A stretch of 64,000 nt of DNA from assembly GCA_905478415.1 (NCBI GenBank), contig CAJQIG010000004.1, positions 139,523 through 203,522 on the forward strand, in the 5' to 3' direction. Numbering within the stretch: position 1 is the stretch's first letter; each line of letters begins with the position of its first letter. Made by a program: the position numbers and the translations under genes. This document shows positions 14,306 through 56,924 of this stretch, piece by piece. A model generated the notes under the pieces. The model made no database searches, had not been told where the DNA came from, and saw only the letters and a list, made by a program, of their open reading frames with translations. The DNA is from an uncultured Patescibacteria group bacterium (GTDB lineage: Bacteria > Patescibacteriota > Microgenomatia > UBA1400 > PJMF01).

Positions 14306-15484
14306 TTAATTAACAACTAATGTATAAACCTTTGAATCAGTTGCTCCTGCTGAATCAGTCAAAATAATTTCTGGATAGTATGTTCCCACCTCTTGGGCAG
14401 TTCCAAAAATCTCACACGTTATTCTTACTGATGCACCTCTGCTGTTTTGATTACAGTTCCCTAAAACTAGACCAGTAGGTAAGCCAGTAGCTGCCATTGA
14501 AAGAGTGTCCTGAAGGTCAGCATCCTGCCCTCTCACCTGAAAACTATAACTTTGTGTTGTCACTGTTGATGACAACCATGGAGTGGCGATTACAGGTGCA
14601 TTGTTACCTGTAATTGGTGTTGGTGAAGGGCTTGGCATTGGTGTTGGCGAAGGACTTGGCGTTGGTGTTGGCGAAGGACTTGGCGTTGGTGTTGGCGAAG
14701 GACTTGGCGTTGGTGTTGGCGAAGGACTTGGTGTTGGTGTTGGCGAAGGACTTGGTGTTGGTGTTGGCAGTGAATTCAAGTCAACAACGTTAAAATAGAC
14801 TCCAGTAAATTTTGCTCCTTGATCTTTATTTGCTGGATACTGAGCCTGGATCTCAACTTTATAAAAAGAAGCTCCATCTGGAATGTTTGTTTCCATAAAA
14901 CCAGTACTTGTCCATGCATGATTAGATCCAGTTCCAGTACTATCACTTACACTGAGTGGCACCCAAACTGGACTCCAAGGGCCATCTGCTGAATTAGACG
15001 AATAAATAGTTATGGTTGCTTGATCAATCCAACCAGTAACCCACTCTGTTTGAAACTGAAGAGTAGTATTTGCTGGATCTGCTTGAACGATCTGGTACAA
15101 ATAGGCATCGTACCCATTAATACCGAATCCATATCCCCCCTGACCATAGCCGCTTGCAAATCTTGCCGCAGTTCCACAATACAACTCATTAGCTCCACAC
15201 TTGCCAGAAACAATAACATCTGCGCTTGGATTCGATCTTTTTTGACTGATAGACCATAGGACCTCACCATTAGTATTTTTAGCTGTGTCTATAATCCAGT
15301 TATTTAAAGAAGCTGCATTAGTAACGACATCACTCCTAAACCAAGGGTTTAAAAGTAAATTCCCCTCAGGAAGAGTCCCCACTTGAACGGCCAGAACCGA
15401 TTTTGCATATAAAATAGCAGTCAATGAAAATATACCAATAAATACTACAAGTGATCTTTTAGCTATTGATATAAATGTATTCAT
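14306..15484 (-). CDS. secreted protein with PTPSPSPT tandem repeat linker and C-terminal putative-Ig (dystroglycan-type cadherin-like) domain
   Basis: signal peptide; ~13x (PSPSPTPT); ...[10 protein letters not shown] motif. Confidence 0.6.
14612..14772. repeat. tandem 24-bp DNA repeat (ggcgttggtgttggcgaaggacttg, ~6.5 copies) encoding the PS/PT linker
   Basis: directly visible perfect/near-perfect tandem copies. Confidence 0.9.
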
Positions 15485-15630
15485 TAGTTTGACCTTCTAT
15501 TCACTTTAAGTGATGTATATTAGTTTATATAGTACTGTCCGATAAGTATGTTTTCAAGTAGTAAATTATTTTTTGTCTTAATGTGAGTAGTACCTATTAA
15601 AGATGGATATGGGCATAGTAATTTTTTACT

Positions 15631-15828
15631 GGCGAGGAGAGTGGGATTCACGACTCGCTACAATCTATATCTTCTTAAGGAAGCTCGCATACACTAGGGT
15701 GACTCGCACAGTGTGCTCGTGTGCCCGTCGCGAACCATCTTCTGCATTCCTTGTTACGCACCGATATAAAAAAATAGGCATTAAGCCTATTTTTTTATAT
15801 GCGGGGAGCGTGGGATGAAATTGGAACT
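15631..15828. repeat. ~200-bp dispersed repeat, copy 1: two degenerate tRNA-3'-end-like segments flanking a hairpin; ~85% identical to 55633..55826
   Basis: tggcgaggagagtgggattcacgactcgctac ... tatatgcggggagcgtgggatgaaattggaac aligned by eye to the tRNA-Ser(TGA) downstream region. Confidence 0.7.
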
Positions 15829-15921
15829 TTTTTCTCTCGATAAAGTGAGGCCTATAAATAATTATCCAAATTTATCAATACTAATTACTATTCTTTTCAA
15901 GAATTAGATTATATATATTTT

Positions 15922-18246
15922 TTATTTCCACTTGATTTTCCCACATTCACATCTACGACTATTATTCGAAGTATCTTTAAATTTAGTTACTGATTTATTA
16001 CACTCATCACATTCAAAAAAATTGAGAGCTTTTTCGCAAGAATCAATTAATTTTTTTGCCTCAACCTTAATTACGCTATATTCATGTGATGAACGATTAC
16101 CCCAAGATAACAACAATCTACTTGATTGCTTCATTGATTTTACTGCATCTAAATATGGAATATAACTTTCAGATTCCTTTATTAGGAATGATTTTTCCAT
16201 ATCTGGAATTAAGTCTAGTAAAAACTCTGAAGCTACTCTTACATCATTTCGTTCTCTATGTTTGTATTTCATTCTTACTTCTAGTTTTTCACATAATACT
16301 GCAAGACAATTATCCATAATTTTTCTACAATTATTTCCAGCTGAAGTTGCGTCATTTGATAACTTTGATCTTGCATCATCAAATGAGAACGTGTTTTTTG
16401 AAAATTGAATTCCTATCTCTGGATTTTCCCAAGGTTTTAATGTTTCAAATTCCCATTTATCATTTTCAAGTTGGTGTCTTAACTCTATAAACCACTCTCT
16501 ATCATGCGTTAAAATAAGTATCTGTCTCTCAGAAAATTCTTTTTCCAAGAGCTCAGCTACTAGTCCTCTATGATTTCTATCAAAACTTACTATCACGTCA
16601 TCTAAGAAAATTGGAATGTCTTTTTCATTACTATTTTTTGCCATTGAAAGGAAAATACATAATCCCAAACTATTTCTATGACCTTCAGATAAAGTTAATC
16701 TCGGTGACTCTAATTCTTTTCCATAAAATTTAAGGCCAATTTCTATTGCTTTATCTGTGTCTGAAGGAAGATATAATTTTATATCCTCAATTTTCTCATC
16801 AGGATGTAATATTTCCCACATTCTCGAAATATCTGAAGATATCGTAGTAATTATTTCAACAGACTTTTTTCTAATTTGATTTCTTATTTCTGATTCAGTA
16901 CCAGTAATAAAATCAATTAATGTAGTAATTCTATCTCTTTCTTTTATTCTTTTTTCGTTATTAAGAACATCTTTAATACCTTCAATTGTATTTTTATCAT
17001 CGTATAATGCTTGTAAATCCTGAGGCGTATCTTTTTTAGATTCAATCGCAGCAATAATTATTGGTTTAAATGTAGAACTAATTAGTTCTAATTGGTCTAT
17101 AGTACAACTGTTTCTGAGTTCGTTGAGATTTAAACTTTTAAATGGTTCCTCAATTTTCAAATCATTATTTTCTTTCCATTTTTTTAAAGACTCTTGATCA
17201 AAGTTTATTGTTAATTGTTCTATACTACTAACAAGATTATTGAGGTTTTCACGATGTGTTTGAAGGATTGTCATTGACTGTTCTAATCTGATAATTTCAG
17301 AATAAATATGATCTTTAAATTCCGAAACTTTAATTAATTTTCCACAAGCTGGACAGTCAATTTCCTCTTTATCAACAATTTCTTGAATAAAGTTTTGAGA
17401 TGAGTTTAGAATGTCAAGTTTTTCTTTAATTAAAGATTCAGATGAGTTTGCAAGTTCAGATAAACTCTCTTTTGAATTTTGAATCAACTGTAATAAATCT
17501 GAACCAGAAATTTTTTCTATTATTGTATATTCAGCATTTTGATTGCCATTTTGATTTATTTTCTCTTTATTTATTTTGCCTAAATTAGACAAAAAATCCT
17601 CATCTATTTCAATTTCTACATTATCACTTGTTTTGTCTAACTCTTTTGCTATATTTAAAATTTCATCTATTGTTTGATCATTAAATAGTAAATTCCTGCT
17701 TTGAGCTGAATTTTTAATATCTGTGTTGATTCCACTCAAATTTGCTTCACTAGCAATATTTCTTGCCAATTTTCTTAAGTTTTCAGCAGATATTTCTAGT
17801 TCACCTAAACCCAATAGTGGTAATAACGTTGAATACTTATCTCCTTTACTGCCCTTAATAAAATTTGATATTTCATCTTGCCTCAAGATTATTGTATGAT
17901 AATTTAACTTGTTAAGCATGTTGTCTGGAGGGGTAATTTGAACTGAACCATTTGGTTCAATTTCTGCAGATATTTGTGATTGATCTGTGAAAGTTATTAC
18001 TACTTTGGCATTATTATCTGCACTCATGTGAGTGTTAATTATAGATTTTTCTTGTCTACGACCGCTATACTCATTTGTTAAATGTAAAATTTTTCCATCC
18101 TTTATAATATATTCCATGCCATCTACAAAAGATGATTTTCCTGATCCATTTTCGCCATACAATACTTTTGATTTTTTATTAAGTTTGAGCGATGTAAAAT
18201 CTGATGCACCTCTGAACCAAGATAAGTCAATGTTTTTAATTTTCAT
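15922..18246 (-). CDS. Rad50/RloC-like ABC ATPase: Walker A, coiled coil with CPAC zinc hook, ABC signature, Walker B, H-loop, C-terminal ~190-aa domain with RX4H (HEPN-like) motif and terminal zinc ribbon
   Basis: GENGSGKSS (aa 31-39); CPAC at aa 298-301 mid coiled-coil; LSEGHRNSLGL; IFLDD; THDREW; RMKYKH; CDEC...CECG. Confidence 0.6.
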   Translation of the reverse strand: MKIKNIDLSWFRGASDFTSLKLNKKSKVLYGENGSGKSSFVDGMEYIIKDGKILHLTNEYSGRRQEKSIINTHMSADNNAKVVITFTDQSQISAEIEPNGSVQITPPDNMLNKLNYHTIILRQDEISNFIKGSKGDKYSTLLPLLGLGELEISAENLRKLARNIASEANLSGINTDIKNSAQSRNLLFNDQTIDEILNIAKELDKTSDNVEIEIDEDFLSNLGKINKEKINQNGNQNAEYTIIEKISGSDLLQLIQNSKESLSELANSSESLIKEKLDILNSSQNFIQEIVDKEEIDCPACGKLIKVSEFKDHIYSEIIRLEQSMTILQTHRENLNNLVSSIEQLTINFDQESLKKWKENNDLKIEEPFKSLNLNELRNSCTIDQLELISSTFKPIIIAAIESKKDTPQDLQALYDDKNTIEGIKDVLNNEKRIKERDRITTLIDFITGTESEIRNQIRKKSVEIITTISSDISRMWEILHPDEKIEDIKLYLPSDTDKAIEIGLKFYGKELESPRLTLSEGHRNSLGLCIFLSMAKNSNEKDIPIFLDDVIVSFDRNHRGLVAELLEKEFSERQILILTHDREWFIELRHQLENDKWEFETLKPWENPEIGIQFSKNTFSFDDARSKLSNDATSAGNNCRKIMDNCLAVLCEKLEVRMKYKHRERNDVRVASEFLLDLIPDMEKSFLIKESESYIPYLDAVKSMKQSSRLLLSWGNRSSHEYSVIKVEAKKLIDSCEKALNFFECDECNKSVTKFKDTSNNSRRCECGKIKWK

Positions 18247-18502
18247 CTTTTAGTAAATCTAATAACTTTCTACTTAGTTTTTCTGCTTGAGTTTTGCTAA
18301 TCTCATTTTGTTGCAACTCACCAGATAATTTATCAACTATTTCTGAAACAATTTTAGAACTTATGGTTTTCCCCTCTTTTGAAAGGTTTTCTACAGTTTT
18401 TTCTACAGTTTTTGATATTTGATTTTTATCCATACTCAGATTATACCACCAGGCTTTTTGCCTGCATAACTTTTCCAACCCGTACTCTTCCCCCCGCCTC
18501 AC
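18236..18502 (-). CDS. small helical protein immediately upstream of, and overlapping, the ABC ATPase gene
   Basis: 11-nt overlap with ATPase start; likely start MDKNQISK. Confidence 0.4.
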   Translation of the reverse strand: MRRGEEYGLEKLCRQKAWWYNLSMDKNQISKTVEKTVENLSKEGKTISSKIVSEIVDKLSGELQQNEISKTQAEKLSRKLLDLLKDEN

Positions 18503-18565
18503 TTACTGCCCATCACATCTGAGCGAAGCGAAGATGTGATACCATTATGTTTCCTTGCGGGGGGA
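18485..18565. other. nested inverted repeats (ccccccgc...gcgggggg enclosing atcacatct-N13-agatgtgat) in AT-rich intergenic region; candidate replication origin/recombination site
   Basis: read directly; flanked by direct repeats accaccaggct(t/a)tttg at 18440 and 18579. Confidence 0.45.
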
Positions 18566-18724
18566 TACTATCTGTGGTTTACCACCAGGCTATTTGTACA
18601 AGATAACTTTATTTGAACTCTTTTGATCCTTTTATTTATATAAAAATATAGTATATTTATTTTTAACTTAGACGTGCAAACGTTCTAGAGCTGTTTTTAA
18701 GAGCTACATCCATGACTATACGTC

Positions 18725-18922
18725 ATGAAAACACTATCAGATCAATGCAACCACAAAAGTGGTGTTGAATCTGTTGCTTATAAAACAAAAAATAATTTTT
18801 CCAAACAAAAAACTCAGCAACAAATACAATCCCAAGAAGATATAGAAATAGAACGCTCTCAGTATTATTTAGGTCGAGCTCTTCATCGTTACTCACTCCT
18901 TCAAAAAGAAAGGAGTAAGTAA
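18725..18922 (+). CDS. small hypothetical protein preceding Rep (TAATG overlap)
   Basis: ORF with translational coupling to Rep. Confidence 0.3.
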   Translation: MKTLSDQCNHKSGVESVAYKTKNNFSKQKTQQQIQSQEDIEIERSQYYLGRALHRYSLLQKERSK

Positions 18923-19764
18923 TGTCATTAGAAAATGATGCTCAAAATATTCTTGGTGCAGTACCTTTAGGTACAAACAAAGAACCTAGTGTGCGTCAGC
19001 ACACTACTAGACTTGATAATACCGGCACAAAAGAACCACCAAAACCAAGAGGTTTTACAAAAAGTAAAATTATTCAAAGTGGCTCACTAATTGAAAGTTA
19101 TGAGTATGAAATACCACTTCGTTATGGTTTTACGCCAAAGCCAAGAGTAAAGACTGCTCGAAAGAAATCTGAAAGAAGTGCAGAACATAGAACTAGAACA
19201 ATAATTCGTGCAGTTAACAATATTAGAAGATTAACTCATCTAAACTTTTCAGAGTATGACAAGTTTCTGACTTTCACCTTTGCAGATACTTTTGAATTTG
19301 ATATTAACAAGCTTGATGAATGCTTACCATATTATAAAAAAGCAATGAGAAAGCTAAGACAGTGGTATCCAAATTTAAAGTATATTACAGTTCCAGAGTT
19401 TCAAAAAAGGGGTGCAGTTCATTACCACCTTTTGTGTAATATTCCTAAAATAAGACAGTCTGAAATGAAGAAAATATGGCCTTATGGTTTCTTCAAAGTT
19501 AAAGAAATTCATGGAACTACACACCTGGCATTTTATTTAGTGAAATATTTATCAAAAAGGTTTGATGATAAACGTAAACAGGGTCATAGATTATATTATG
19601 CCTCTCGTGGTTTAAAGCGTCCTACTACTTTGTATGGTCCATATGCTGAGGCTATTACTAATAAGCTCAAAAAGGATCATTCTAATGCTGTACAATATGA
19701 AACTAATTATGATACTGAACATAATGGAACTGTTGATTATAAACAGTTTGTGAAAGAAAAATGA
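18922..19764 (+). CDS. rolling-circle replication initiator (HUH endonuclease, pC194/Rep_1-like)
   Basis: motif I FLTFTF, motif II VHYHLLC, motif III YLVKYLSK. Confidence 0.65.
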   Translation: MSLENDAQNILGAVPLGTNKEPSVRQHTTRLDNTGTKEPPKPRGFTKSKIIQSGSLIESYEYEIPLRYGFTPKPRVKTARKKSERSAEHRTRTIIRAVNNIRRLTHLNFSEYDKFLTFTFADTFEFDINKLDECLPYYKKAMRKLRQWYPNLKYITVPEFQKRGAVHYHLLCNIPKIRQSEMKKIWPYGFFKVKEIHGTTHLAFYLVKYLSKRFDDKRKQGHRLYYASRGLKRPTTLYGPYAEAITNKLKKDHSNAVQYETNYDTEHNGTVDYKQFVKEK

Positions 19765-21281
19765 AAACTATTATTTATTGTCGTAAATCAACTGAAGAAG
19801 ATTCTAGACAAACTCAATCTCTTGGTACTCAACAACGTTTGTTAATTGATCTAGCCACTCGTGAGAATTTGGAAGTTGTTGATATTGTTAAAGAATCAAA
19901 AAGTGCTAAAGAAGATCATAATAGACCTTTGTTTGCCAACATGTTGGAAAGAATACAAAATGGTGAGGCTGATTCGATCTTAGTTGTTCACACTGATCGT
20001 TTGGCTAGAAATCTAATCGATGCTGGATATATTATTAAGTTGATAGAACAAGGATTCTTAAAAGAAGTACGTACGTTAACAAATGTCTTTTTTGATGCTC
20101 CATCTTTAACATACATGGGTTTTGATTTTGTTTATGCTGCCCATTATTCAAGAGACCTATCTGTAAAAGTTAAAGCCGGTAATGAAAGTAAAGTGCTAAA
20201 AGGAGAATATCCAAGCTATGCTCCAATTGGATACATAAATATAAAGCCAGGTAAAGGTATTAAGCCAGATCCAATCAGAGCACCATTTATTACAAGAGCA
20301 TTTGAACTATTTGCTACTGGTGAATACTCAGTTAAAACTCTAGCTAAAAAATTGGCTAGTGAAGGATATAGATCAAGAAGTGGTAAAAAAGTTGCTACCT
20401 CTAGTTTACATAGACAAATAACTAATCCTGAATACTATGGTGTTATTCGAAGAGATGAAAAACTATATCCTGGAAATCATAAACCTTTAATATCCAAACA
20501 ATTATTTGATGAAGTTCAAAAAAGGCTTGCAAATAAAAGTAGGCCAAAAAAGCAAAAGTATAATTTTGTTTTCAGAGATTTTCTAACATGTGGTGAATGT
20601 GGTTGTAAAGTTACTGCTGGAATTACTAAAGGAAAATATATTTATTACAGATGTACAAATGGAAAAGGTAAATGTACTCAACATAAAAAATATAGAAGTA
20701 AACAAAAAGTTACAGATGTATTTCAGGAATTTTTTGGAGGTTTCACTCTCGATCCAGAAAGAGCAAACAAATCATTTAATTTATATAAAGATTCATTAAT
20801 AAAAGAAGATAATTATAAAAAAGATAGTAAAGACGCAATTAAGCAACAAATCGCAAATCTAAAAAGAAAATTAATAAGGATTGAGGATATTTATATTGAT
20901 GAACAAATTTCTTTTGATCGTTATAACGAAAGAAAAACTGAATTTGAAAATGAACTTGCTCAATTAAAAGTTTTATCTAAACAAAAAAATAATGTGGGGA
21001 CTCTAGAAACTTTGGAACTTGTTGAAGAAGTAAAAAATAGCTCGGTACAGCTGTCTAAAATTTTTGAAGAAGGAGATGACGAGGTAAAAAGAGATTTATT
21101 AAAATCTGTACTTTGGAACTGCGAATTTAAAGATGGAAAAATTACTTCTACCAGACTAACTAAATTGTGGAAACCACTTGAAAATCTTAATGATTCTCAC
21201 AATTTAGAAAAATGGCGGAGGGAGCGGGATTCGAACCCGCGGTATCTTGCGATACGGCAGTTTAGTAAACTGCTGCACTAG
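19761..21281 (+). CDS. large serine recombinase (integrase); last ~23 codons read through the adjacent tRNA gene
   Basis: N-terminal resolvase domain IIYCRKSTEEDSRQTQSLGTQQ; recombinase domain; Cys zinc ribbon CGECGCK...YRCTNGKGKC. Confidence 0.85.
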   Translation: MKTIIYCRKSTEEDSRQTQSLGTQQRLLIDLATRENLEVVDIVKESKSAKEDHNRPLFANMLERIQNGEADSILVVHTDRLARNLIDAGYIIKLIEQGFLKEVRTLTNVFFDAPSLTYMGFDFVYAAHYSRDLSVKVKAGNESKVLKGEYPSYAPIGYINIKPGKGIKPDPIRAPFITRAFELFATGEYSVKTLAKKLASEGYRSRSGKKVATSSLHRQITNPEYYGVIRRDEKLYPGNHKPLISKQLFDEVQKRLANKSRPKKQKYNFVFRDFLTCGECGCKVTAGITKGKYIYYRCTNGKGKCTQHKKYRSKQKVTDVFQEFFGGFTLDPERANKSFNLYKDSLIKEDNYKKDSKDAIKQQIANLKRKLIRIEDIYIDEQISFDRYNERKTEFENELAQLKVLSKQKNNVGTLETLELVEEVKNSSVQLSKIFEEGDDEVKRDLLKSVLWNCEFKDGKITSTRLTKLWKPLENLNDSHNLEKWRRERDSNPRYLAIRQFSKLLH

Positions 21282-21300
21282 GCCACTATGCGACCCCTCC
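21213..21300 (-). tRNA. tRNA, Ser-type (long variable arm, encoded CCA); anticodon loop UUACUAA so the apparent anticodon is ACU
   Basis: folded by eye: acceptor GGAGGGG/CCCCTCC, anticodon stem GCAGT/ACTGC, T-arm GGGTTCGAATCCC. Confidence 0.6.
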
Positions 21301-22618: not shown

Positions 22619-23122
22619 TTACATCTCCAATATAGGTTCTTCTCCGTCAGGAACATCAAATAGTTCTTGATTAAAGAACTTAATTTTCTTAGGAGTAATT
22701 TTATACATTTTACTAGAAATTATTTTCTTAGCCATATTTTCATAAGATAAAGACTCATCTGTAACACCTAGCTGTTGCTTCCAAAGGTGAAGTGAATGTT
22801 TTATTTTTACTACATCTGAAATCTGTTCTGCATGTCCATATAATTGGAGACCTTTTTTGTCTCCGGCTATACTTTGATTTGAGTTTGTTATTGCAACAGC
22901 AACTTGTGAATTTTCTTTTATTTGTTTGCAATGAATTGTTTTTGGAGAACTAAGAAAATATAGATTTAAATCTTGATCAAATGAATAGTAAACAGATGCT
23001 ATCCAAGGATGATTTTCTCCATAGGTAGCAACTTGCATTAAATTGTGTTGTTTTAAGTATTCGAGGATGTGTTTCTTTGTTAGTTTCATAGAAAATACAG
23101 GCTTTGGTTCTACAATTCCCAT
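22619..23122 (-). CDS. pyridoxamine 5'-phosphate oxidase-like FMN-binding split-barrel protein
   Basis: fold-typical sequence pattern (QVATYGENHPWIASVYY...). Confidence 0.45.
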   Translation of the reverse strand: MGIVEPKPVFSMKLTKKHILEYLKQHNLMQVATYGENHPWIASVYYSFDQDLNLYFLSSPKTIHCKQIKENSQVAVAITNSNQSIAGDKKGLQLYGHAEQISDVVKIKHSLHLWKQQLGVTDESLSYENMAKKIISSKMYKITPKKIKFFNQELFDVPDGEEPILEM

Positions 23123-23196
23123 ACCTATCCCAATTTTAACACATTTCTAGCCTGGAGTTCTGAATTGCGAGGGTTAGTGAACGATGTTCGAACCTT

Positions 23197-23784
23197 TTAC
23201 TCCAATGAAATCCAATATCTAAGCTTTTCAACTCCAGGATCTTGGCTTACTTTTTTTGCTGGTATTCCACCGCATTTCTCAATAATTTTTTTTGAAGCTA
23301 TGTGATCTTTGTCACAGGTGAGTAAAACTTTTTTTAATCCTAAGCCTTTTGCCTTTTCTAAACCCAGTTTAAGTATATTATACCCATAACCCGTTTTTCT
23401 TTTAGAAGGTCGAACATCATAGCCAATATGCCCACCTACTTTCCTAAGAAACTCAGTCATTTCATGACGAATATCCAATCTTCCAATAAATGCGTTATTA
23501 TCAATAAGCCAATATTCAGTTGCTGAAATATATCCTTTAAAAAGATTTTCTCCTCTAGATCTGCTTTTTATTTTTTCAACAAATGCTGAAAAGTCATTTT
23601 CAATTTCATTTTGATTAATTGATCTATAATGTTCGCGATCTTCATCTTTGTATTCTTTTAATGCATTAAGATAAGAATCCTTGTACTTACTATCAGGTAA
23701 AGTTAGTTTCATAATAATTAGAATTATATCAAATATTAGGTGTTTAAGATTTTTTATTAAGCATGCAAATTCGTAGATGTTCAC
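23197..23784 (-). CDS. GNAT family N-acetyltransferase
   Basis: acetyl-CoA binding motif (…GLGLKKVLLTCDKDHIASKKIIEKCGG). Confidence 0.6.
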   Translation of the reverse strand: MNIYEFACLIKNLKHLIFDIILIIMKLTLPDSKYKDSYLNALKEYKDEDREHYRSINQNEIENDFSAFVEKIKSRSRGENLFKGYISATEYWLIDNNAFIGRLDIRHEMTEFLRKVGGHIGYDVRPSKRKTGYGYNILKLGLEKAKGLGLKKVLLTCDKDHIASKKIIEKCGGIPAKKVSQDPGVEKLRYWISLE

Positions 23785-23803
23785 TTGAGGAATAATTGCG
23801 TTG

Positions 23804-23886
23804 CGGAGGTAGAGGGATTCGAACCCACGGATCCCGAAGGATCACGCTTTCCAAGCGTGTGCAATTGACCACTATGCGATACCTCC
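23804..23886 (-). tRNA. tRNA-Ser (anticodon GGA), no encoded CCA
   Basis: anticodon stem CACGC/GCGTG loop TTGGAAA; long variable arm. Confidence 0.8.
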
Positions 23887-23919
23887 ACTTTGGATAGCCG
23901 GATTATATACGGTTTTGAA

Positions 23920-24384
23920 CTAGATTTCTACCAACTTAACAGCTTCTATAACGAAAGGAGCACGTAAGATCTCTGGATGGGTTAGGAGTTCTTCCTTTGT
24001 ATACCAGTTGACTTCAAAAATATTTTCTTCAGCAGGGTTGTGAGAAAAGTCTAATTCTAAAGATCCAACAACCTTACATTGAAATCCAATACAGAGAATA
24101 TGAGTTTTCCATTGATCTAAAATAAATGACCACGTTCCAACTGGTTTTCCAGGAACTACTGTTAATCCAACTTCTTCTTTCACTTCACGAATTAAGGCCT
24201 CTTGAGCTGTCTCTCCAAACTCAATACCACCACCAGGGAAATCATGTATTATCTCTCCTGATGATGTCTTTTCAGTAATAACTAGGATTTTGCCATCATG
24301 CACTATCAGTGCTTTGGCACCAGGACGAATTTTTTTTGGAGTTTCTTTTTTCGGTAATTTGTTTTTTATAATTGGTATGGTCAT
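23920..24384 (-). CDS. NUDIX hydrolase
   Basis: Nudix box PGGGIEFGETAQEALIREVKEEVGL. Confidence 0.75.
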   Translation of the reverse strand: MTIPIIKNKLPKKETPKKIRPGAKALIVHDGKILVITEKTSSGEIIHDFPGGGIEFGETAQEALIREVKEEVGLTVVPGKPVGTWSFILDQWKTHILCIGFQCKVVGSLELDFSHNPAEENIFEVNWYTKEELLTHPEILRAPFVIEAVKLVEI

Positions 24385-24482
24385 CGATTCTTTCTTATCT
24401 AGAATTAGTATATACCAAGATACAAGTAGTTACTGTGTAATTGGAATGGTATAATTCGATCCGTAGTGCATAATTTGCACCT

Positions 24483-24568
24483 GGAGGCATCGCATAGTGG
24501 CCAATTGCACAAGATTGCTAATCTTGACCGATTTTTCGGTTCGTGGGTTCGAATCCCACTGCCTCCGC
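24483..24568 (+). tRNA. tRNA-Ser (anticodon GCU), no encoded CCA
   Basis: anticodon stem CAAGA/TCTTG loop TTGCTAA; long variable arm. Confidence 0.8.
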
Positions 24569-38329: not shown

Positions 38330-41300
38330 TTAGTTTCCTCTTCCTAAAAATCCAAAGGCTGCACTTAGATTTGTAACAACTAGGTCGAGAGCATTTTCTG
38401 TAGCCTTTGGTGTAATCACCACTTTATCTAGGGAAAGAGCCTCATTCCCAAAGCTATCTTTAGAAATTGCTCTTAAGTGATATACCTTGGCGGGAGAAAG
38501 TTCAGAAATAACCACCAAGTGATGACTGGTGAAACTGCCATCTTCCTGTGTTTTCTGTGAATACGAAGTTCCACTGCCTTCACCAAACTCAATCTGGGCA
38601 GTGGCAGCTTCGTCGGTCTTGTATGAAACAACTAATTGCGCGGTGGCTTCTTCACCTGTGCCTAAAATTTCTGTATCAACTTTTAAGTCACTTATCTGTG
38701 GCGGGCGAGTATCAGCAGAAGTAGAAACTTGTTGCACTTCGCCAGCAGCTTCATTTCCTGCGGCATCTTTTCCTTTGACCACAAGTGCATAGGTTGTTTG
38801 TGGCTCAAGATCATATAAAACCATTTGGTGTTTACCACTCTTGAGAGCAATGTTAACTTCGTCTTTGGCAGCACCTGGAGCCACAACTGGATAGTAGGTG
38901 ATAACTGAACTCACTTGTGTATTTGAGTTCCAAGTTACCAATAGCGTTGAACGAGCAGTTCCTTTAACCTGGTTTACCTTGATATTAGAGAGTCGCGGTC
39001 GAGGTAAAGTCGTAAAGGAATGAATTTCTCCCTCATACTCTTCGCCTTCTGAATCAAAAGCGTTAATTTTATAGTAATATTTTGTACCATCAGTGAGTTC
39101 TTTGAGTTGTACAGTGTAGGTCCCTTCACCTGTACCAGTCACCACATCCTCAATCCCACCAAAGGCTGATGACTCCCCATAGTAAATTCGCACTCTACTG
39201 GCATTCTTGGAAGTAAATTGTACCAAGGCAGTATCGAGACCAACTGCCTTAATTACTGGTTCTTCTGTCGAAGGTGGTGGTTGGGTCTCGAAGGTCATTT
39301 CATCTGAAGAACCAGTGTTACCATCTTCGTCAGTCCATTTAGCAATGTAGTAGTAGGTCGTCCCAGGACTCAAGTTAGACATCTTCAAAATATGTGATGT
39401 CACATGCTCGGAGTTAGAGACCTCTTCGTCAAAGTAATCTCCTGCCCCTAACCCATAGGCAATTTTTGAATCTGCCGTACGACCCGTTGACCAAGAAATG
39501 GTAGCTTTTCTAGTCGTAATATCTGTTTCTGTTGGAGCAGATGTCAACTCTGCCGGAGTCACAAATTTACCATCTGGGTAAAGAGTAACTATTTCAGAGA
39601 AAGCTCCACAGTTATTAGTACTGTCACAAGCCTTAACTTTATAATAATAAATCTGTTGCGTTAACCCCACGTCTACATAAGAGATACCACCACTTGTGGC
39701 AATTTCTGCAAACGAAGTTCCATCGATTGAACGATAAATAGAGTAACTGCTAATAGCTTCTGGGTTTGAAACATTTTCTGCTGGAACTTCCCAAGAAAGA
39801 GCTAACTTCCATGAGCTCGTACTCTTCACAGATACGTCAGCAATATCTATATTTAATGGAATTCCTGGAGCAGAAGTATTGGCACTAAAAGTAACTTGCT
39901 CATAGTTACTATAGTTGATGTTGCCCGCTTCATCTTTAGTCACAATATAGAAGACATTATCTCCAGGTAAAGTAGCGTACGCTCCTGCATTAAGATAGGT
40001 CAGGCTGGTTGAAGAAGTACTCTGAACTGTTGGTAGTGCGTTGATACTATAATAGTAGGATAAATTTGATTCAGACCCATAAAATGTCCCCGTTGCCGGT
40101 GGTGTCCACGAAAATGCAAATGAATTATCAGTGTTTGTTGCCGGTGCCACTTGCACATTCTGTGGCGGAGCCGGAGCATTGGCACTATCTACATAGTAGT
40201 ACTGTGTCGTTGCATAACTACTATAGTTACCACCAGCATCCTTAGTGCGAACAGAAAAAGTATTGGCACCAACCTTGTGTGATGGAATAGCTGTCACAGC
40301 CGTACTTGCCGTACACTGATCGACGGAGTAAGCACCAGCTGAAGCTCCAGTTTTGTAGCAGTACTCCGTAACTGGGGCCCCACTAGCAGTAGCCGTATCC
40401 CAAGAAAAATCAAAACTATCTATGGCGCTATATCCAGATGGATCTGAAGTCACACTTGTTGGAGCAGAAGCCGGCTCGGCATCATACTTATAGATAAATG
40501 GCTGCCAGGTTGTTGCTGAGAAATTACCAGCATCATCAACAGTCTTGATTCTTAAGTAGTACGTTGAGCCATTCACCAAACCACTGGCAGTGTAATCAGA
40601 AGTTGTTTGTAAAGTGCCATCAACTTCTGGATCAGCACTAACATTCGTCCCAAAATACACATAGTATCCTGCCACACCTGAGCCAGAAGTTGTATCCGAA
40701 GCACCATTTGTGGCTTCTGCTTCTGGCCAATCAAAGTATGGTGCTGCGTGTCCATACCAAGTTCCAGAAACAATTGCATCTCCTGGTGAGTTGTCACTAT
40801 AGACTGAAAGACCCGCATTTTCTGGGTTTGTTGGTGCAGATGTATCTTTATAATAGTTAATGGTGTAATCATTAACTATTGTTGAAAGGACCCCATCCGA
40901 CGAGGTTAACTCAAACTTGACTTCAATATATTGATTTGCAGGTGAGTTAATTTTATATGAGTAAGTTGTTCCGGTTTGCTTTTCGGCTGACACGGCTGTC
41001 CAAGATGACCAAGCGCTCGCATCTGCCGAGCTTCGCGTCGTAATCGTTATACCCGTGTTGCTTGCCTCAGCCATCACAACGTCTAAACTTGCCCATTTAT
41101 AAACACTTGTTAAATCATGAGTCTGAGAAGTATAGCTTCCAGATTCTTTAAAACCAGAAGTAGCTGTATCCATCACATAAGTATAGATGCCATCTCTGAT
41201 ACTATTTGTGCCTGATCCAGATAGCATATAAATTTTATTAGACCCATTACTTTCGCCCGCCCCCCCAGCGTAAATTCTAGCAGGTGCATTATCTAACTGA

Positions 41301-44300
41301 GTCCAAGTGTCACCTGAGACTGAGTACTTAAAGAAGTCGTTATCATTTTCTCCCCGAGCCGCATAGAAATTTCCATCACCGCCATCAGCTAAAAATCCAT
41401 CATTATAGACATCTATGCCAATGTTGCTAAGTGTCGACCAACTGTCCGCACCAATATCGTAACGATAAAAAGGATTATTAGCCGCGTTTTGACCACGAAG
41501 TGAATAGATATAACCACCATTTAAAAGCAGCTCAGCTCCATACCCTAAACCAGCTGGAGCATTTGTCATTGATGACCATTTTGCACCACTTGATTCCTGA
41601 GTGTCAAAACGGTAGAAAGATGATGAATTAGCACCTCTATTTAAATAAATATATTGTGAACCATCATAGACCATCGAAGAACCATAGTTTGGAGCCACCG
41701 GAGGCGAATCTGCAGACTCCTCTGACCATACATTAGTAGCAATATCATAGACATAAAATCTATTATTATAACTACCACCCGTATAGTAGATTTTGTTATT
41801 TGTACTTTCGTATACAAGCGAAGAGCCATTGTAAGCACCTGAGGGCAATGAAGCCATCGTTGTGGTAGTTCCTGTCGATTGATTCCATCTAACAAATGTA
41901 TCAGAGTAATTTCCACGAACTAAGTAGAAATTATCTCCATCTCCCTTGGCAATATCTGAACCATAGTATTCAGTTGTATAGGTAGTCCCCTGGAAAGTTC
42001 TACCAAACAAACCTCCTGTTGGAGTCAACCAGCTATCTTTTGCGATATCATACTTATAAAAGGAAGTAGTATTACCTCCACGAATTGCGTAGAAACTAGT
42101 ACCAACTAGCTTCAGCGTTCCACCATAATAAAAAGTAGCTGGGGCAGAAGATTTTTGCGTCCATGTCTGTGAACCAACATCATACTGATATAGTAAATCA
42201 GAGTAATATCCCGGCATGTAAAAGATTGACTGGGTCGTTGGATCAAATTCTATAGAAGACCCATAATACGGAAGAGCTGGCAAATCAGTGAGAACTGTCC
42301 ATTCGTTGGTATTAACGTCATATTGAGAAAAACCATCTCGCAAATTTCCTTGCGTTACATACACCACTTCATTCGCTTGATCCATAGCGATATCAGCACT
42401 CACATAAGCATTATTATTTATTGCATCACTCGTGGCCCCAAAATCTAGAGTTGCCAGTGATTCCCACGAGTCAAAGCTGGTGTCATATCTCCAAAAAGCA
42501 TCGTCATTATTGCCTCTCATTACATAGATATATTGAGATCCATCGTAAATCATGGATCCTCCATATCGAACAGTGAGCGGTGTATCGACAGCATCCTCAT
42601 CACTCCATGTATCAGTTCCAATGTCATATCGCCAAAACGAAGTGTAGTTATTCCCTCTCATTCCATATAAGTACCCTGAAGGACCTTCGATAACTCCCCC
42701 TCCCATACGCACAGATGCTGGAGCTGCTGCTTTTGATGACCAGGTATCTGTATCAATATCATATGAATAAAAAGTGGTTGAGTTATTTCCTCTGAGAGCA
42801 TACAAATCATTGTTGTCAGCATCATAAGCCATGTTTTTAGCACCATACTGCATGCTCCCTGGGGTAGAGCTAATTGTTTCTTCAGCCCAAAATCCACCTG
42901 ACTGACTACTCAACTTAATTTGATCACTACTCACTACTGTATCGGTAGCTGTTCCAGTAAAATCACTGGTATCACTTACAACTAAACTTTGTGCAGGCGA
43001 AACACCACCATAACCGTACTCAAAGAGAGTGGTTCCAGCACTCACATTACCAGCCGTGTCTTTTGTTTTAATACGCAAATAATAAGTTCCTGTAGAAAAT
43101 GGTTTTGTTGTTGGATACGTTGTAGTTGTCTGGTAATCTCCATTGATCTCGGGGTCTGCTAAAACATTTGTACCGAAATACACATAGTATCCTGCCACGG
43201 CACTATCAGCATCAGTGGCTCCACTCCAAGAAAAATGAGGAGCAAGGTGGCGATATGTTTGACCACTCGTCAGTGATGATCCCCCAATTTCCTGAGAAAG
43301 ACCAGTGATGGTATCTGGATTTGTTGGTGCAGTGGTATCACCCGCATAGATAACAGTAATATCCTTTAAGATTGGCGTATCAGCCAAATCAGTTGATGCT
43401 ACTAATACTGCTCTAACCTTCAAATATTGTTGTGGAGTAGATGTAATCGTTGTTCCACTAACAGTTTGCCATGCATCCCAATTAGTACCATCACTACTCG
43501 ACTGTGTTTGATAGGTGACCGAAACATCTGAAGGCGTTGTAGCGGTCCCAACCAACGAAGTCCATGATGAAACGTACCCTAAATCTTGAACTGTTGATTC
43601 CCAAGTACCTGTAGACACATAGTTTGATCCAGAAGCCGTAAATTCAAGCAAATCAGCCAAAGCCCCACCACGGGTAACATAAAAGGTTCCAGCTCCATCA
43701 TTCTCTATCGATCCCCCCGTGTAAGTTCCTAAATTTTGAGCTCGATATCCTGCAAATGAAGGTAGTTTTCTCCAACTATCACTGCTAATGGTGTATTCCC
43801 AGAAGTCAGTCCCATACCAGCCAGTGGTAGCATAGATTTTTCCATTGTAGTAAGAGATATCTGCTCCATAATAGGGAGCAAATGGAATGCTACCCACTTC
43901 CGACCATGTGTCAGTACCAATAACATATTTATACATTCGAGCAACACCTGCACCTGCAGTGTAATACAAATCAGTTCCGTCTGTAGTTAAGCGGGCACCA
44001 TAACTGGCTCGTGCATCAGTTGGCAAATCTGAAATAGCTTCCCAGCTATCCCCAGAGATACTATATCGCCAAGCTGTATATTGGAAGTTTCCCCTGGTTG
44101 CATAGATATAATCTCCACTACCTGGATAAGTAAGTGTTCCACCATATCGAACCGAAGACGGAGCATCTGCCATCGTTGACCAAGTATCACTCCCAGGAGT
44201 GTACCTATAAAAGGTAGTAGTATTAGAACCCCTAAAGAAATAGAGGTTTGCACCAGCGACTACTCCCTTCGTATCATCATTGAAACTTGCCGGTACAGTC

Positions 44301-54354: not shown

Positions 54355-54463
54355 AATTGGAACTTTAGTTAGGTAGGAAGTTCATAACTCTTTACTCAGC
54401 TTAGTTTTTGCTAAAAACTAAACACTTGCTTTACTTTCATATTTATGCTAGTATAAATATACT

Positions 54464-54691
54464 ATGATAGAAATGAATGAATTTAAAAATACTGTTGGTG
54501 TAAATATTAAAAGTGTAAGAAAAATGCTCAATATTTCTCAAGAGGATCTTGCAAATAAAGCATGTGTTAAATATTCAAACTTAGTTAAAATTGAAAATTC
54601 AATAATAATAAAACCATCTGTTTATACAGTTTACCGTATCGCAAAAGCATTAGATACATCTGTAGAACATCTTATTGAGAAAAGAGATTAA
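54464..54691 (+). CDS. XRE-family HTH transcriptional regulator (islet)
   Basis: ISQEDLANKACVKYSNLVKIENS. Confidence 0.65.
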   Translation: MIEMNEFKNTVGVNIKSVRKMLNISQEDLANKACVKYSNLVKIENSIIIKPSVYTVYRIAKALDTSVEHLIEKRD

Positions 54692-54694
54692 AAT

Positions 54695-55039
54695 ATGAAT
54701 TATAAGAATAAAATACTAATGAAAATATACTCTGTTTTTCCTTTTGATCTATTTCCAGATACAATTTCCTTACAAAAAGATAAAATTGATATTACGCACA
54801 GACCTTTCTTTTTTACGAAAGAAGTATTCACTGTCTTTATCAATGATATTAGAACAATTAGAATTACTAGTGGTCCATTCTTTGCAACACTATCTTTTGA
54901 ACTAAAAGGTATGATGGAAAAACAAAATCCAGAACCAATTAGTTTTTTGAGAAAAAAAAGTGCACAAAAAATAAGAAAAATGGCTCTTAATCTTTGCGTA
55001 AGTCAATCTAAGAAAAAAAAGAAAAATTCCAAAAATTAG
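54695..55039 (+). CDS. small hypothetical protein
   Basis: ORF adjacent to regulator; AT-rich. Confidence 0.35.
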   Translation: MNYKNKILMKIYSVFPFDLFPDTISLQKDKIDITHRPFFFTKEVFTVFINDIRTIRITSGPFFATLSFELKGMMEKQNPEPISFLRKKSAQKIRKMALNLCVSQSKKKKKNSKN

Positions 55040-55086
55040 TAGAAATATTCTGAGTTATAAACTTAGTTATTATCTATATTTATATT

Positions 55087-55116
55087 ATGCGGAGAGCATG
55101 GGGTGAAATTGGAAAT
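55087..55116. repeat. degenerate tRNA-3'-end-like att relic (atgcggagagcatggggtgaaattggaaat)
   Basis: near-identical to 15799..15828 and inverted at 57639..57669. Confidence 0.6.
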
Positions 55117-55126
55117 TTAGTTAGTA

Positions 55127-55486
55127 TTAAACTAATAACTGAATAAAAACCATTACAATTTTCCATAAGAAATATAATCCTGTTGATAGTCCCAGGAATC
55201 TTCTCCAATTATTAACACCATAAAAAAGCTCTAGATACGACCAGTAAAGCATGGCTATAGCAACACCCCAGAAACTCACTGATATTAAAAAATCATTTTT
55301 TATAAATCCTAAGAGATAGAAAAAAATCGCTAGCCAGAGAGGTTGATTGGGAAATTGGCCAATGACTATTTTCCCCTGAGGTGTTTTGAAGGGGTTGTTC
55401 ATAAAAAATATTCTTTTTAAATTGTATAGATTTAGAATTAGTATATCACTTGTAAATAAGCATGAAATTTTTAAAAATAGATGCAT
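55127..55486 (-). CDS. small membrane protein
   Basis: 3-4 TM helices. Confidence 0.4.
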   Translation of the reverse strand: MHLFLKISCLFTSDILILNLYNLKRIFFMNNPFKTPQGKIVIGQFPNQPLWLAIFFYLLGFIKNDFLISVSFWGVAIAMLYWSYLELFYGVNNWRRFLGLSTGLYFLWKIVMVFIQLLV

Positions 55487-55632
55487 TAATTGATGGAATA
55501 CAAAATCATCAAATTAAACTCGTTTCAGAACACTCATATGACTTGAGAGTTGTTTCAAATGATGATCACAAAACTTACATTGCATTTTGTAAAAAACATT
55601 TGAAGATAACTTATTTATCTCAAAATTAATTT

Positions 55633-55808
55633 GCGGAGAGCGAGGGATTCACGACTCGCTACTATTTATATCTACTTATGGAAGCTCGCATGCACTAAGC
55701 AGGTGTTTCGCAGGTGCTCAACACTTGCTGGCGCGAACAATCTTCTGCATACCAAACCACACCCCGATATACAAAAAAATGAGCTATTAGCTCATTTTCT
55801 TGTATATG
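55633..55808. repeat. ~200-bp dispersed repeat, copy 2: 23-nt direct copy of tRNA-Ser(TGA) 3' end (55633..55660) plus spacer with hairpin, abutting the real tRNA
   Basis: tgcggagagcgagggattcacgactcgc vs tRNA end gcggagagcgagggattcgaaccc. Confidence 0.7.
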
Positions 55809-55891
55809 CGGAGAGCGAGGGATTCGAACCCACGGGCCCCGAAAGGCGCGGTTTTCAAGACCGATGCAATTGACCACTCTGCCAGCTCTCC
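55809..55891 (-). tRNA. tRNA-Ser (anticodon UGA), no encoded CCA
   Basis: anticodon loop CTTGAAA; long variable arm; T-arm GGGTTCGAATCCC. Confidence 0.8.
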
Positions 55892-55985
55892 ATGTTGTAT
55901 GTTACTGGTTTGTTTTTTATTCTGGTACAAACACTAACCAGGTAGCCATTATATACTGACTTGCCTACTTTTTCGAGCAGAAAAT

Positions 55986-56732: not shown

Positions 56733-56788
56733 TGGTTTTTCTAGAGATACTAAAAAAGCAAAGTCTTTGATATAATGCTCGAGTACAC

Positions 56789-56865
56789 GCGCTCATAGCT
56801 CAGTTGGATAGAGCATCAGTTTGCGGAATTGAAGGTCGCAGGTTCGAGCCCTGCTGAGCGCACCA
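56789..56865 (+). tRNA. tRNA-Arg (anticodon read as GCG), CCA encoded
   Basis: acceptor GCGCTCA/TGAGCGC, anticodon loop TTGCGGA, T-arm GCAGGTTCGAGCCCTGC. Confidence 0.65.
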
Positions 56866-56924
56866 TTTTTCCCACTCGTTCTAAGTTTCAAAAATAACTA
56901 GAATTCATGTTTTTTGAAAAAGGT

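Follow-up and report, generated by a model that had tools for sequence, protein, structure and literature searches.

The filamentous Ralstonia phages phiRSM1 and phiRSM3 integrate into the 3' end of a serine tRNA gene (tRNA-Ser) by means of a serine recombinase (Askora et al. 2011, reviewed in PMC4471427). In Prochlorococcus, the islands of tycheposons contain partial tRNA-like sequences, and a minority of these elements use large serine recombinases (LSRs) (bioRxiv 10.1101/2020.12.28.424599). Here, we analyzed a DNA stretch of 64,000 nt (hereafter the window; contig CAJQIG010000004.1, positions 139,523 to 203,522, assembly GCA_905478415.1) from an uncultured bacterium of the Patescibacteria or candidate phyla radiation (CPR), in which an AT-rich segment combines an LSR gene, a gene for a replication protein (Rep) and a tRNA-Ser gene. 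CPR bacteria have very small genomes; mobile elements have rarely been described in them, and genetic tools are almost lacking. We hold with good confidence that positions 15801-21218 of the window are the integrated copy of a small plasmid-like replicon, the family of which is resident in CPR/Patescibacteria genomes; the element would measure 5,414 bp if circularised, and it encodes Rep, the LSR and one large cargo protein. The original prediction, made from the letters of the window, had likewise proposed an integrated rolling-circle replicon with an LSR at a tRNA gene, and it is now backed by the presence of the Rep-LSR module at five kinds of tRNA-Ser, by unoccupied syntenic sites, and by a circular relative that carries the predicted attP.

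The integrase gene and its relatives

The following features (window coordinates) carry the argument:

15801..15827, plus strand: attL, the left junction, with the GCGG core at 15801-15804, then the 27-nt P arm GCGGGGAGCGTGGGATGAAATTGGAAC, a mimic of the tRNA-Ser 3' end
18725..18922, plus strand: small open reading frame (ORF) of 65 aa directly upstream of Rep, with a counterpart of 63-69 aa in every family member
18922..19764, plus strand: Rep, an HUH endonuclease (PF23343 family; PHROG 3419/3584) that has motif I and the HUH motif as well as a motif III with two tyrosines
19761..21281, plus strand: LSR (integrase), 506 aa, three Pfam domains (PHROG 95 integrase, E = 1.6e-79)
21190..21244, plus strand: attR, the right junction, with the P' arm in the LSR 3' coding end (..aatttagaaaaaTG), GCGG at 21215-21218 and the B arm AGGGAGCGGGATTCGAACC
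21213..21300, minus strand: host target tRNA-Ser, anticodon ACT (ARAGORN; Rfam tRNA, 50 bits)

The three plus-strand genes form a tightly packed operon with overlapping stops and starts (65-aa ORF, 280-aa Rep, 506-aa LSR), while the minus strand is taken up by a 774-aa ATPase (15922-18246) and a small ORF lying across the ATPase start codon. The GC content of 15801-21214 is 30.3%, the lowest among 293 segments of equal size (rank 1; median 39.9%), and the flanks reach 39.6% on the left and just 33.7% on the right, so that the compositional break is sharp only at the left. The earlier estimate of about 30% inside the element was accurate, while that of 42-50% for the flanks was too high.

The large serine recombinase that had been proposed at 19761-21281 matched the Resolvase, Recombinase and Zn_ribbon_recom domains. 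Its N-terminal catalytic domain, which holds the serine nucleophile (PF00239, residues 4-148, profile positions 2-143 of 145, E = 1.8e-16) includes YCRKS at residues 6-10 and is followed towards the C-terminus by PF07508 (E = 8.1e-16) and PF13408 (E = 3.1e-7), both of which pass their cutoffs. The integrase-at-tRNA arrangement was also found as predicted, the LSR and tRNA-Ser(ACT) genes being convergent with an overlap of 69 nt. This overlap is a by-product of integration, because the crossover falls at the last bases of the tRNA: codons 1-485 of the LSR derive from the element, and after W485 the last 21 codons are the antisense strand of the host tRNA. Conversely, the element contributes only the final tRNA bases, of which G73-C74 are identical in both partners and C75-A76 are new. 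A tRNA carried by the element itself was considered and rejected, as the tRNA-Ser genes are syntenic host genes.

The same module was found in other genomes. Six intact elements (that of the window and five relatives) carry the small ORF, Rep and the LSR in this order, with differing cargo and host flanks, and in all six the antisense tRNA-Ser 3' end lies 1,451-1,452 nt from the LSR ATG. The relatives comprised three loci with LSRs 82%, 69% and 66% identical to that of the window and two loci retrieved by a motif scan (37-82% overall):

L023: tRNA-Ser, anticodon GGA
L026: tRNA-Ser, anticodon ACT
L027: tRNA-Ser, anticodon GCT
L039: tRNA-Ser, anticodon TGA
L031: tRNA-Ser, anticodon CGA; LSR 37% identical

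Occupied and unoccupied versions of corresponding sites could be compared in three cases. The occupied tRNA-Ser(GGA)-NUDIX-tRNA-Ser(GCT) locus of L023 is syntenic with window positions 23803-24568, where the GGA tRNA is free of an element. In L039, the occupied tRNA-Ser(TGA)-ORF-tRNA-Arg(GCG)-tRNA-Ser(CGA) locus is syntenic with window positions 55808-57011 (tRNA 95.5% identical), and the tRNA-Ser(TGA) of the window stands there without Rep or recombinase. The occupied tRNA-Ser(GCT) of L027 is identical up to CCGC to the unoccupied one of L026, and their right-hand flanks are syntenic.

A circular form was found in a more distant relative. An LSR homolog (P0076, 43% identical) is encoded on two Joint Genome Institute (JGI) contigs from different samples, one of 5,428 nt with an exact terminal repeat of 127 nt (L042) and one of 5,340 nt with a terminal repeat of 39 nt (L043), which are circular permutations, 100% identical, of one 5,301-bp circle. 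This circle encodes the small ORF, Rep and the LSR, continues with ..AACTG/GCGG/GGAGCGTGGGACGATATTGGAAA, and then encodes a LexA-like repressor and two proteins of unknown function. On this circle the conserved 27-nt motif of the far element end (described below) is fused to the LSR 3' end with nothing in between, which is direct evidence for an episomal form of the family and for the motif as the P arm of attP. Another contig (L044, 4,244 nt, 24-nt terminal repeat) is possibly circular as well; it encodes a 45%-identical LSR with a motif-like tail, a 379-aa reverse transcriptase (RVT_1) and a membrane protein, and no recognisable Rep was found on it.

The target tRNA of the window has an unusual anticodon (ACT, with A34), and the window also encodes tRNA-Ser genes with the anticodons GGA, GCT, TGA and CGA. 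Between the window copy of tRNA-Ser(ACT) and that of L026 (11453-11540, minus strand) there are 11 differences, with five pairs changed on both sides, one pair changed on one side (G-U to A-U), none broken, and an identical anticodon loop. Since pairing and anticodon loop are preserved, this tRNA looks real and selected rather than a pseudogene. It carries an element in both genomes.

Attachment sites and replication

The far end of every related element carries a 27-nt motif (GCGGRGAGCRTGGGATGAARTTGGAAC), which is present at 15801-15827 of the window with no mismatch to the consensus and in three copies in the whole window, against none expected by chance. Its conservation among elements halts exactly at GCGG, and the sequence beyond differs everywhere. 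At the other end, occupied tRNAs read ...CCGC followed by CA and a run of T (CCGC+CAttttt), continuing into conserved LSR coding sequence, whereas unoccupied tRNA-Ser genes read ...CCGC followed by A and unrelated sequence, so that CCA is not encoded. The predicted attP would then consist of the LSR 3' end (..TG), GCGG and the motif, and the predicted attB of the tRNA 3' end, GCGG and the host flank:

Predicted attP, about 50 bp: aatttagaaaaaTGGCGGGGAGCGTGGGATGAAATTGGAAC with flanks
Predicted attP junction of the window element: AATTTAGAAAAATGGCGGGGAGCGTGGGATGAAATTGGAACTTTTTT
Predicted empty attB junction of the window site: CCTATTTTTTTATATGCGGAGGGAGCGGGATTCGAACCCGCGG

Before insertion, attB of the window is predicted to have been the tRNA followed by the hairpin terminator that now lies at 15755-15795. 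The pattern of sequence conservation puts the crossover inside GCGG, at tRNA positions 71-74. In serine integrases, the central dinucleotide sets the polarity of the reaction. As GG/CC (tRNA positions 71-72 on the other strand) is the only non-palindromic central dinucleotide among the three in GCGG, it is the probable crossover point. With a crossover within GCGG at the very end of the gene, the tRNA stays intact and gains an encoded CCA.

The arms of the sites were aligned from the GCGG core, with only one arm of each site being comparable. The B arms, i.e., the acceptor and T-arm of the tRNA in attR and in the other sites (six occupied and five unoccupied tRNAs), carry GGGAT and T(C/T)GAAC at positions 12-16 and 17-22, respectively, while all 17 P-arm copies of the motif have GGGA(T/C) at 12-16 and TGGAAC or a close variant at 22-27. 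For a Listeria integrase, Rutherford et al. described that the motif of the zinc-ribbon domain lies 5 bp nearer to the centre in attB than in attP, a shift put forward as the basis of attP x attB selectivity (PMC3783163). The same 5-bp offset independently supports our assignment of the motifs as P and B half-sites of the LSR.

The far side of the element (15631-15828) had been taken for a degenerate relic of a tRNA 3' end. Sequences resembling tRNA 3' ends are indeed present there (20-mers at 15630-15649 and 15799-15818, 80% and 70% identical to the tRNA end), but they neither form a single relic nor represent a displaced host end, as 15801-15827 is the element's own conserved attP arm and 15630-15770 is a separate repeat outside the element. 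The far-end motif is not the host's tRNA end, because it is near-constant at tRNAs with differing acceptor stems and cannot pair with the 5' strand of this tRNA.

Further support comes from the C-terminal tails of LSR homologs. Since attP overlaps the LSR stop region, the tail switches from ...W-RGAWDEIGTFFSR in the circle, where the protein would have 498 aa, to ...W-RRERDSNPRYLAIRQFSKLLH in the integrated form. A search for LSR homologs returned 705 proteins, and tails were counted in the 114 full-length sequences among the 120 homologs listed: at least 70 of the 114 finish with W-R-R-x-x-D-S-N-P-R, which is the antisense translation of the tRNA T-arm, another 13 terminate right at W-R-R, and five homologs end in the translated att motif (W-R-G-A-W-D-D-I-G...) instead. 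With at least 70 of 114 homologs doing so, reading into the tRNA is a family trait and not a local oddity. Three homologs (P0008, P0015 and P0031, 52-67% identical) end in ...DSNPRSLAAHAFQACAIDRYAT, antisense to a tRNA with a short variable loop, probably one with a Pro-type anticodon region; going by these tails, the wider LSR family may also target tRNAs other than serine.

Rep contains the three motifs read earlier in ORF 18922-19764 (FLTFTF, VHYHLLC and YLVKYLSK) and matches Pfam PF23343 (Replication-associated protein ORF2/G2P) with 71.7 bits against a cutoff of 27.8 (E = 6.6e-20). When aligned with six relatives, T119, H167, H169, Y205, K208, Y209 and K212 are invariant, and motif III has the form Y-x-x-K-Y (Y205-x-x-K208-Y209-x-x-K212) with both tyrosines invariant, as in phiX174-type Reps. 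The Reps of pC194 and pUB110 use a single catalytic tyrosine paired with an acidic residue. The two invariant tyrosines of motif III do not fit this single-tyrosine rule, and the label 'pC194-type' given to the protein in the original prediction is not supported: Rep_1 was absent from the Pfam scan at E <= 0.01, which returned only PF23343 and a sub-threshold match to RepSA (24.2 bits, cutoff 34). In tblastn searches, the best annotated relative, at 41% identity (E = 2e-37), came from a Zot-encoding inovirus, Bajarodino virus 41, and matches were also obtained to 95 records of Ralstonia filamentous phages, to VP4 of Microviridae, and to plasmid Reps from Bacillus, Geobacillus and Brevibacillus, which are 30-36% identical (E down to 4e-30) and belong to plasmids of 1.5-7 kb. 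No solved structure matched Rep by sequence.

Upstream of the operon, a structured AT-rich intergenic locus had been noted, and the DNA fold of 18430-18730 is indeed more stable than that of shuffled sequence (z = -5.3). The features of this region are as follows:

18445..18591, no strand assigned: structured non-coding region with direct repeats ACCACCAGGCT (18445-18455 and 18581-18591) around a hairpin
18489..18564: hairpin with arms CCCCCCGCC...GGCGGGGGG and an inner hairpin at 18512-18540
18621..18657, plus strand: conserved block TTTTGATCCTTTTATTTATA...TATAGTATATT with near-invariant alignment columns

Conservation of the hairpin extends to L039 and L026, and the changes in its inner stem are paired (ATCT/AGAT vs. 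AGTC/GACT); the structured region 18445-18591 is a candidate single-strand origin or regulatory RNA. The conserved block, TTTTGAT(A/C)CTTTT(A/G)TTTATA...TGTATATT, has 0-2 mismatches in the five closest elements (that of the window, L023, L026, L027 and L039) and contains a promoter-like match, TTGATC-18-TATAGT, at 18623-18652; the smallORF-Rep-LSR operon may have its promoter here, Rep its nick site (TTTG/ATAC-like), or both may apply. Its TTTGATA core resembles the CTTG/ATA nick sites of phiX174 and pC194, a resemblance that serves as a lead only. The small ORF in front of Rep was called as a gene in L023, L026, L027, L039 and L042, and its C-terminal 17-19 residues are 88-95% identical across elements. 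Serine integrases act unidirectionally in integration and require a directionality factor for excision. This ORF is a candidate regulator or recombination directionality factor, and the only family-wide candidate for an excision factor.

Taken together, these features suggest the following cycle. Once excised, the element (5,414 bp as a circle) would replicate in rolling-circle mode from the conserved intergenic region through its two-tyrosine HUH Rep, and the LSR, expressed from the same operon, would bring attP together with the outermost 3' end of a tRNA-Ser and exchange strands within GCGG. In this scheme attP straddles the LSR stop region, with the P' arm in the last codons, the GCGG core, and the 27-nt P arm, and any tRNA-Ser isoacceptor can be a target, because the recognised arm is the conserved acceptor and T-arm. 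The integrated copy would then be inherited with the chromosome until excision, which should need a directionality factor, with the 63-69-aa ORF before Rep as the candidate.

Competing explanations

Several points weigh against reading the segment as the integrated copy of a replicon. The only circular form found belongs to a relative with a 43%-identical LSR, and neither an empty allele of the window site nor an excised form of the window element was found. All contigs read with the flanking gene also bear the element (23/23, at 99.75-100% identity), so that it may be fixed or immobile; these contigs came from exact-protein look-ups of the right-flank gene and the LSR and represent one near-clonal strain. 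An empty allele was also looked for in related species in a single scan of reference genome contigs with the flanking HD protein, which gave two relatives (66% and 54% identical), both non-syntenic and without a tRNA-Ser nearby. The scan of JGI metagenomes for attP (TGG+motif) gave 13 loci, but in these 'TG' stands before the motif by chance, and no true attP of a close relative was among them; the same scan yielded L039, L031 and several remnants. The motif search of IMG/VR gave no matches. No excision factor was identified for the element, the B' and P' arms have no obvious motif in common, and the Rep nick site and the origins are guesses. Moreover, L023, L026 and L039 have arrays of motif copies beside one tRNA, and next to two other tRNA-Ser genes of the window there are also copies of the motif or short remnants, all lacking P' sequence. 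Recombination of attP with attL or attR is not carried out by canonical serine integrases. As canonical directionality leaves such arrays unexplained, the proposed cycle has to assume repeated decay, in which older residents lose their integrase-proximal part and a usable attB is restored ahead of the next insertion.

One rival explanation is a fixed, immobile genomic island, i.e., an ancient insertion kept for its cargo, with Rep and LSR intact through recent history or co-option. The element occupies the same place in every contig read, these contigs coming from more than 20 samples, and an empty allele was not seen; the cargo protein has Ser in place of a near-invariant histidine (H673); and the neighbouring tRNA-Ser genes hold only short remnants. 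We consider this explanation unlikely. None of the three core ORFs is truncated, and their catalytic residues are invariant, so the degradation of Rep and recombinase into pseudogenes, which the original prediction had named as a possible refutation, has not occurred; in addition, the P arm has no mismatch to the family consensus, and the sharp drop in GC argues against long residence. The lack of polymorphism itself says little, as the sampled contigs are essentially one clone (>=99.75% identity). The window copy of the replicon may still be mobile.

A second possibility, which we regard as doubtful, is that the element is a capsid-less derivative or satellite of an inovirus, the single-stranded circles made by Rep being packaged by a helper inovirus and spread as in phage satellites. 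Support comes from Rep, for which the best annotated relative is the Zot-encoding inovirus named above and the 95 Ralstonia inovirus records match. An IMG/VR scan with the Rep alignment picked out 80 small contigs, the Reps of which are 25-37% identical apart from one short partial match at 42%; among these contigs, five encode an LSR just after Rep, and three of these five (L055, L057 and L068) encode Zot and are real inoviruses. The cargo of the LSR-bearing contigs includes one NgoPII restriction-modification pair and one reverse transcriptase. Inoviruses with serine recombinases and inoviruses in CPR bacteria have been reported (PMC6813254), and the phiRSM inoviruses integrate at tRNA-Ser (PMC4471427). 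Against this stands the gene content: when the window element and ten sampled cargo proteins of L023, L026, L027 and L043 were scanned with Pfam and PHROGs, neither Zot nor a coat protein nor any other virion gene came up, while the same scan detected Zot in L055, L057 and L068. Furthermore, the 64-kb window contains no helper phage, no packaging signal is known, and the motif is absent from IMG/VR. With Zot in the IMG/VR relatives and none in the window element, the Rep-integrase module is common to inoviruses and to capsid-less elements with defence-type cargo, and the window element belongs to the latter. Extended to the whole family, the idea becomes speculative: its members would be capsid-less descendants of CPR filamentous phages, living as defence-carrying satellites that settle at any tRNA-Ser, excise, form single-stranded circles through their inovirus-type Rep, and are spread by a helper inovirus or by natural competence; by arriving and decaying again and again, they would build the AT-rich islands and att 'graveyards' beside every tRNA-Ser of this genome. 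We give this scenario little probability; if true, the satellites would be the CPR counterpart of tycheposons and phage satellites, and would offer a ready toolkit of integrase, attP, attB and replicon for bacteria that lack genetic tools.

That the HUH protein is a relaxase for conjugative mobilisation, making the segment an integrative mobilisable element, rather than a replication initiator, appears very improbable. Rep-type HUH proteins do act as relaxases in some streptococcal integrative mobilisable elements (PMC7563843), but no conjugation or coupling-protein genes were found in the element or the window, the relatives of Rep replicate 1.5-7-kb plasmids and ssDNA phages, and one relative of the element exists as a free 5.3-kb circle.

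Classical tRNA-duplicating integration, the implicit model of the original prediction, in which a crossover inside the tRNA displaced the host 3' end to 15631-15828, has next to no credibility left. In its favour, the two far-side tRNA-3'-like 20-mers are in the right orientation, and tRNA-Ser(TGA) and tRNA-Ser(CGA) are each followed downstream by an exact copy (17-18 nt) of their own 3' end. Against it, the far-side motif is conserved to about 90-100% at tRNAs whose acceptor stems differ and shows no complementarity to the 5' acceptor strand at the window site, the circular form has the same motif beside the recombinase gene, and the occupied tRNA of L027 matches the unoccupied one of L026 up to CCGC.

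Cargo, neighbouring islands and described systems

The minus strand of the element carries two further genes:

15922..18246, minus strand: cargo gene, 774 aa, for an ABC ATPase of the Rad50/SMC type, the coiled-coil insert of which has CPACG at its tip; the C-terminal part holds a HEPN-fold domain and a 4-Cys zinc ribbon
18236..18502, minus strand: small ORF overlapping the ATPase start codon, 88 aa from GTG (gene callers use the ATG at 18433, 65 aa)

The small ORF was called as a gene in all same-strain contigs and had no significant match in family searches. The cargo protein belongs to a widespread family of about 785-aa proteins in several phyla (full-length identity 40-46%). Its head has Walker A, signature motif, Walker B and H-loop, is covered by SMC_N over residues 3-588, and is split by a long helical insert, at the tip of which CPACG (298-302) is invariant in 40 sequences, with long helices on both sides in the model. 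This AlphaFold2 model (predicted local distance difference test score 82.9) resembles the heads of SMC, Rad50, LmuB and JetC.

The anticodon nuclease RloC is built from an ABC ATPase, a zinc hook and a C-terminal nuclease (PMC2610378). The cargo protein shares the ABC head and the coiled-coil insert with a central CxxC zinc hook, a likeness by architecture, but Pfam AAA_13 covers only its ATPase part and not the nuclease part. The RloC triad R-x3-E...H is only partly mirrored, in that R641-x3-D645 is invariant and the candidate His673 is Ser, and the cargo protein has in addition N-R-x-S-H721 (invariant or nearly so) and the terminal 4-Cys ribbon. His is found at position 673 of the HEPN-like domain in 37 of 40 family members, with Ser here (codon 16230-16232) and in two others; if H673 is catalytic, the nuclease may be inactive in the window copy. 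A Lamassu system was rejected, as the match to the LmuB hidden Markov model (E = 1.3e-21) covers only the ATPase part and no LmuA-like gene is adjacent, and so was PARIS (AriA in PADLOC), of which the generic ATPase part matches and the partner genes are absent. The two PADLOC matches reflect the ATPase fold. A defence role is plausible, and our best guess is a stand-alone RNase of the abortive-infection type.

The host itself is, judging from its genes, a Pacebacteria-like CPR bacterium: the enolase of the window is 85% identical to that of Candidatus Pacebacteria, with further matches to Patescibacteria and Woesebacteria. The small genome that had been anticipated is in line with the longest record bearing these genes (584 kb) and with relatives that are single contigs of ~1.1-1.2 Mb. 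Close relatives of the window organism (GCA_020632265.1, CAZUHV010000001.1 and CAZKVV010000002.1) are labelled 'Pseudomonadales bacterium'; these labels are likely taxonomic mislabels, because enolase and gene content place the genomes with Pacebacteria/Patescibacteria.

Two other AT-rich islands lie directly 3' of tRNA-Ser genes of the window, at 54400-55807 (28.8% GC, tRNA-Ser(TGA)) and 57012-59500 (31.2% GC, tRNA-Ser(CGA)). Copies of the 27-nt att motif stand 0.6-0.7 kb from the tRNA at 55089-55115 (two mismatches) and 57639-57665 (no mismatch), the ORFs include a 75-aa helix-turn-helix protein and proteins of 114, 119, 190 and 302 aa, and no Rep, recombinase or P' sequence was found in either island. 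They probably hold remnants of earlier family members. A repeat of about 130 nt, which we call X, is situated downstream of three tRNA-Ser genes, at 15630-15770 (minus strand), 55631-55770 (minus strand) and 57798-57842 (plus strand); its final 17-20 nt copy a tRNA-Ser 3' end, exactly so for 18 nt of TGA at 55634-55651 and 17 nt of CGA at 57781-57797. It was not found in the other element loci examined, and the idea that it encodes a structured RNA was discarded (fold z +0.47 to -2.4, no Rfam match better than E = 0.9).

A second att-like motif, GCGGAGGTGTGTGTACCAAGTTAGAACC, often follows a ~70-nt repeat, is bounded by the inverted sequences AGGTTCTAA/TTAGAACCT, and is scattered intergenically:

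Window: 23100-23200 and 58951-58999 (minus strand)
L023: 1685-1765, 3060-3097, 3796-3892, 5148-5185, 6060-6164 and 7017-7131

Possible interpretations are an arm used by a different integrase subfamily and a miniature element that is not autonomous. Between tRNA-Ser(ACT) and tRNA-Ser(GGA), the segment 21301-23802 contains five genes (DUF5661, a 94-aa protein, an HD protein, PNPOx and an acetyltransferase) at 33.7% GC, with an island-like tetranucleotide profile (correlation 0.86, vs. 0.97 for the left flank). Elements inserted at the GGA tRNA would lie in exactly this place, so the segment may be old island material. To the left of the element, a secreted protein (14306-15484, minus strand) has a Pro-Thr/Pro-Ser repeat (~14583-14798) that varies in length among otherwise identical strains, where the protein is called with 392, 384 or 376 aa or as 112+264 aa and alignments break at 14662-14720. 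Further away, a single ORF of 2,376 aa fills 38330-45460 (minus strand).

Among described systems, phiRSM is also a small rolling-circle replicon with a serine recombinase, attB at a tRNA-Ser 3' end and attP adjoining the recombinase gene (PMC4471427), and the Reps are of the same broad family (the 95 Ralstonia phage records). phiRSM is a true virus with morphogenesis genes and has a small recombinase of the resolvase/invertase type and a 13-nt core, whereas our element has a three-domain LSR, a GCGG core, no virion genes and a CPR host. The integrases of A118/LI, phiC31 and Bxb1 share the domain set, short att sites, a minimal core and the distal motif placed 5 bp outward in attP (PMC3783163), but the element differs from them in targeting the last bases of a tRNA, in several paralogous tRNAs, in an attP that overlaps the integrase stop, and in being a 5-kb Rep plasmid and not a tailed phage. 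Integration at a tRNA, rolling-circle replication after excision, and tandem insertions or remnants at the same tRNA are also known from pSAM2-like elements, which, however, use a tyrosine integrase with an excisionase, RepSA and conjugation genes, none of which occur in the element (PMC2440964). The rolling-circle plasmids of Bacillus, Geobacillus and Brevibacillus have Reps 30-36% identical and a similar size, but they are purely episomal and lack an integrase. Tycheposons are likewise small cargo elements of a streamlined genome, with an integrase and a replication module, tRNA targets and remnant islands; they mostly use a lineage-specific tyrosine recombinase and a primase, helicase or polymerase, in contrast to the HUH Rep and the invariable LSR found here (bioRxiv 10.1101/2020.12.28.424599), and what are 'partial tRNAs' there are element-encoded mimics here. 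Our analysis suggests that the tRNA-Ser-linked islands in these genomes were built by this family, akin to those of tycheposons in Prochlorococcus.

In practical terms, the locus offers a sequence-defined system for CPR bacteria, with a compact replicon, an LSR, and short predicted attP and attB sites, the latter in the conserved 3' ends of tRNA-Ser genes, several per genome. It also indicates how a serine integrase can exploit a tRNA gene and leave it undamaged, with the crossover placed in the last four bases and CCA supplied by the element, and it brings defence cargo (ATPase-HEPN, restriction-modification, reverse transcriptase) into one module family with Reps of the inovirus type and integrative plasmids. 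Full-text searches returned no description of an element that unites an inovirus-type Rep and an LSR, targeting of several tRNA-Ser isoacceptors at the discriminator/CCA junction, an attP in the integrase stop, the lack of a capsid, and a CPR host. Each ingredient is known, from phiRSM, from pSAM2-type elements, from tycheposons and from the att logic of LSRs; it is their combination that appears new.

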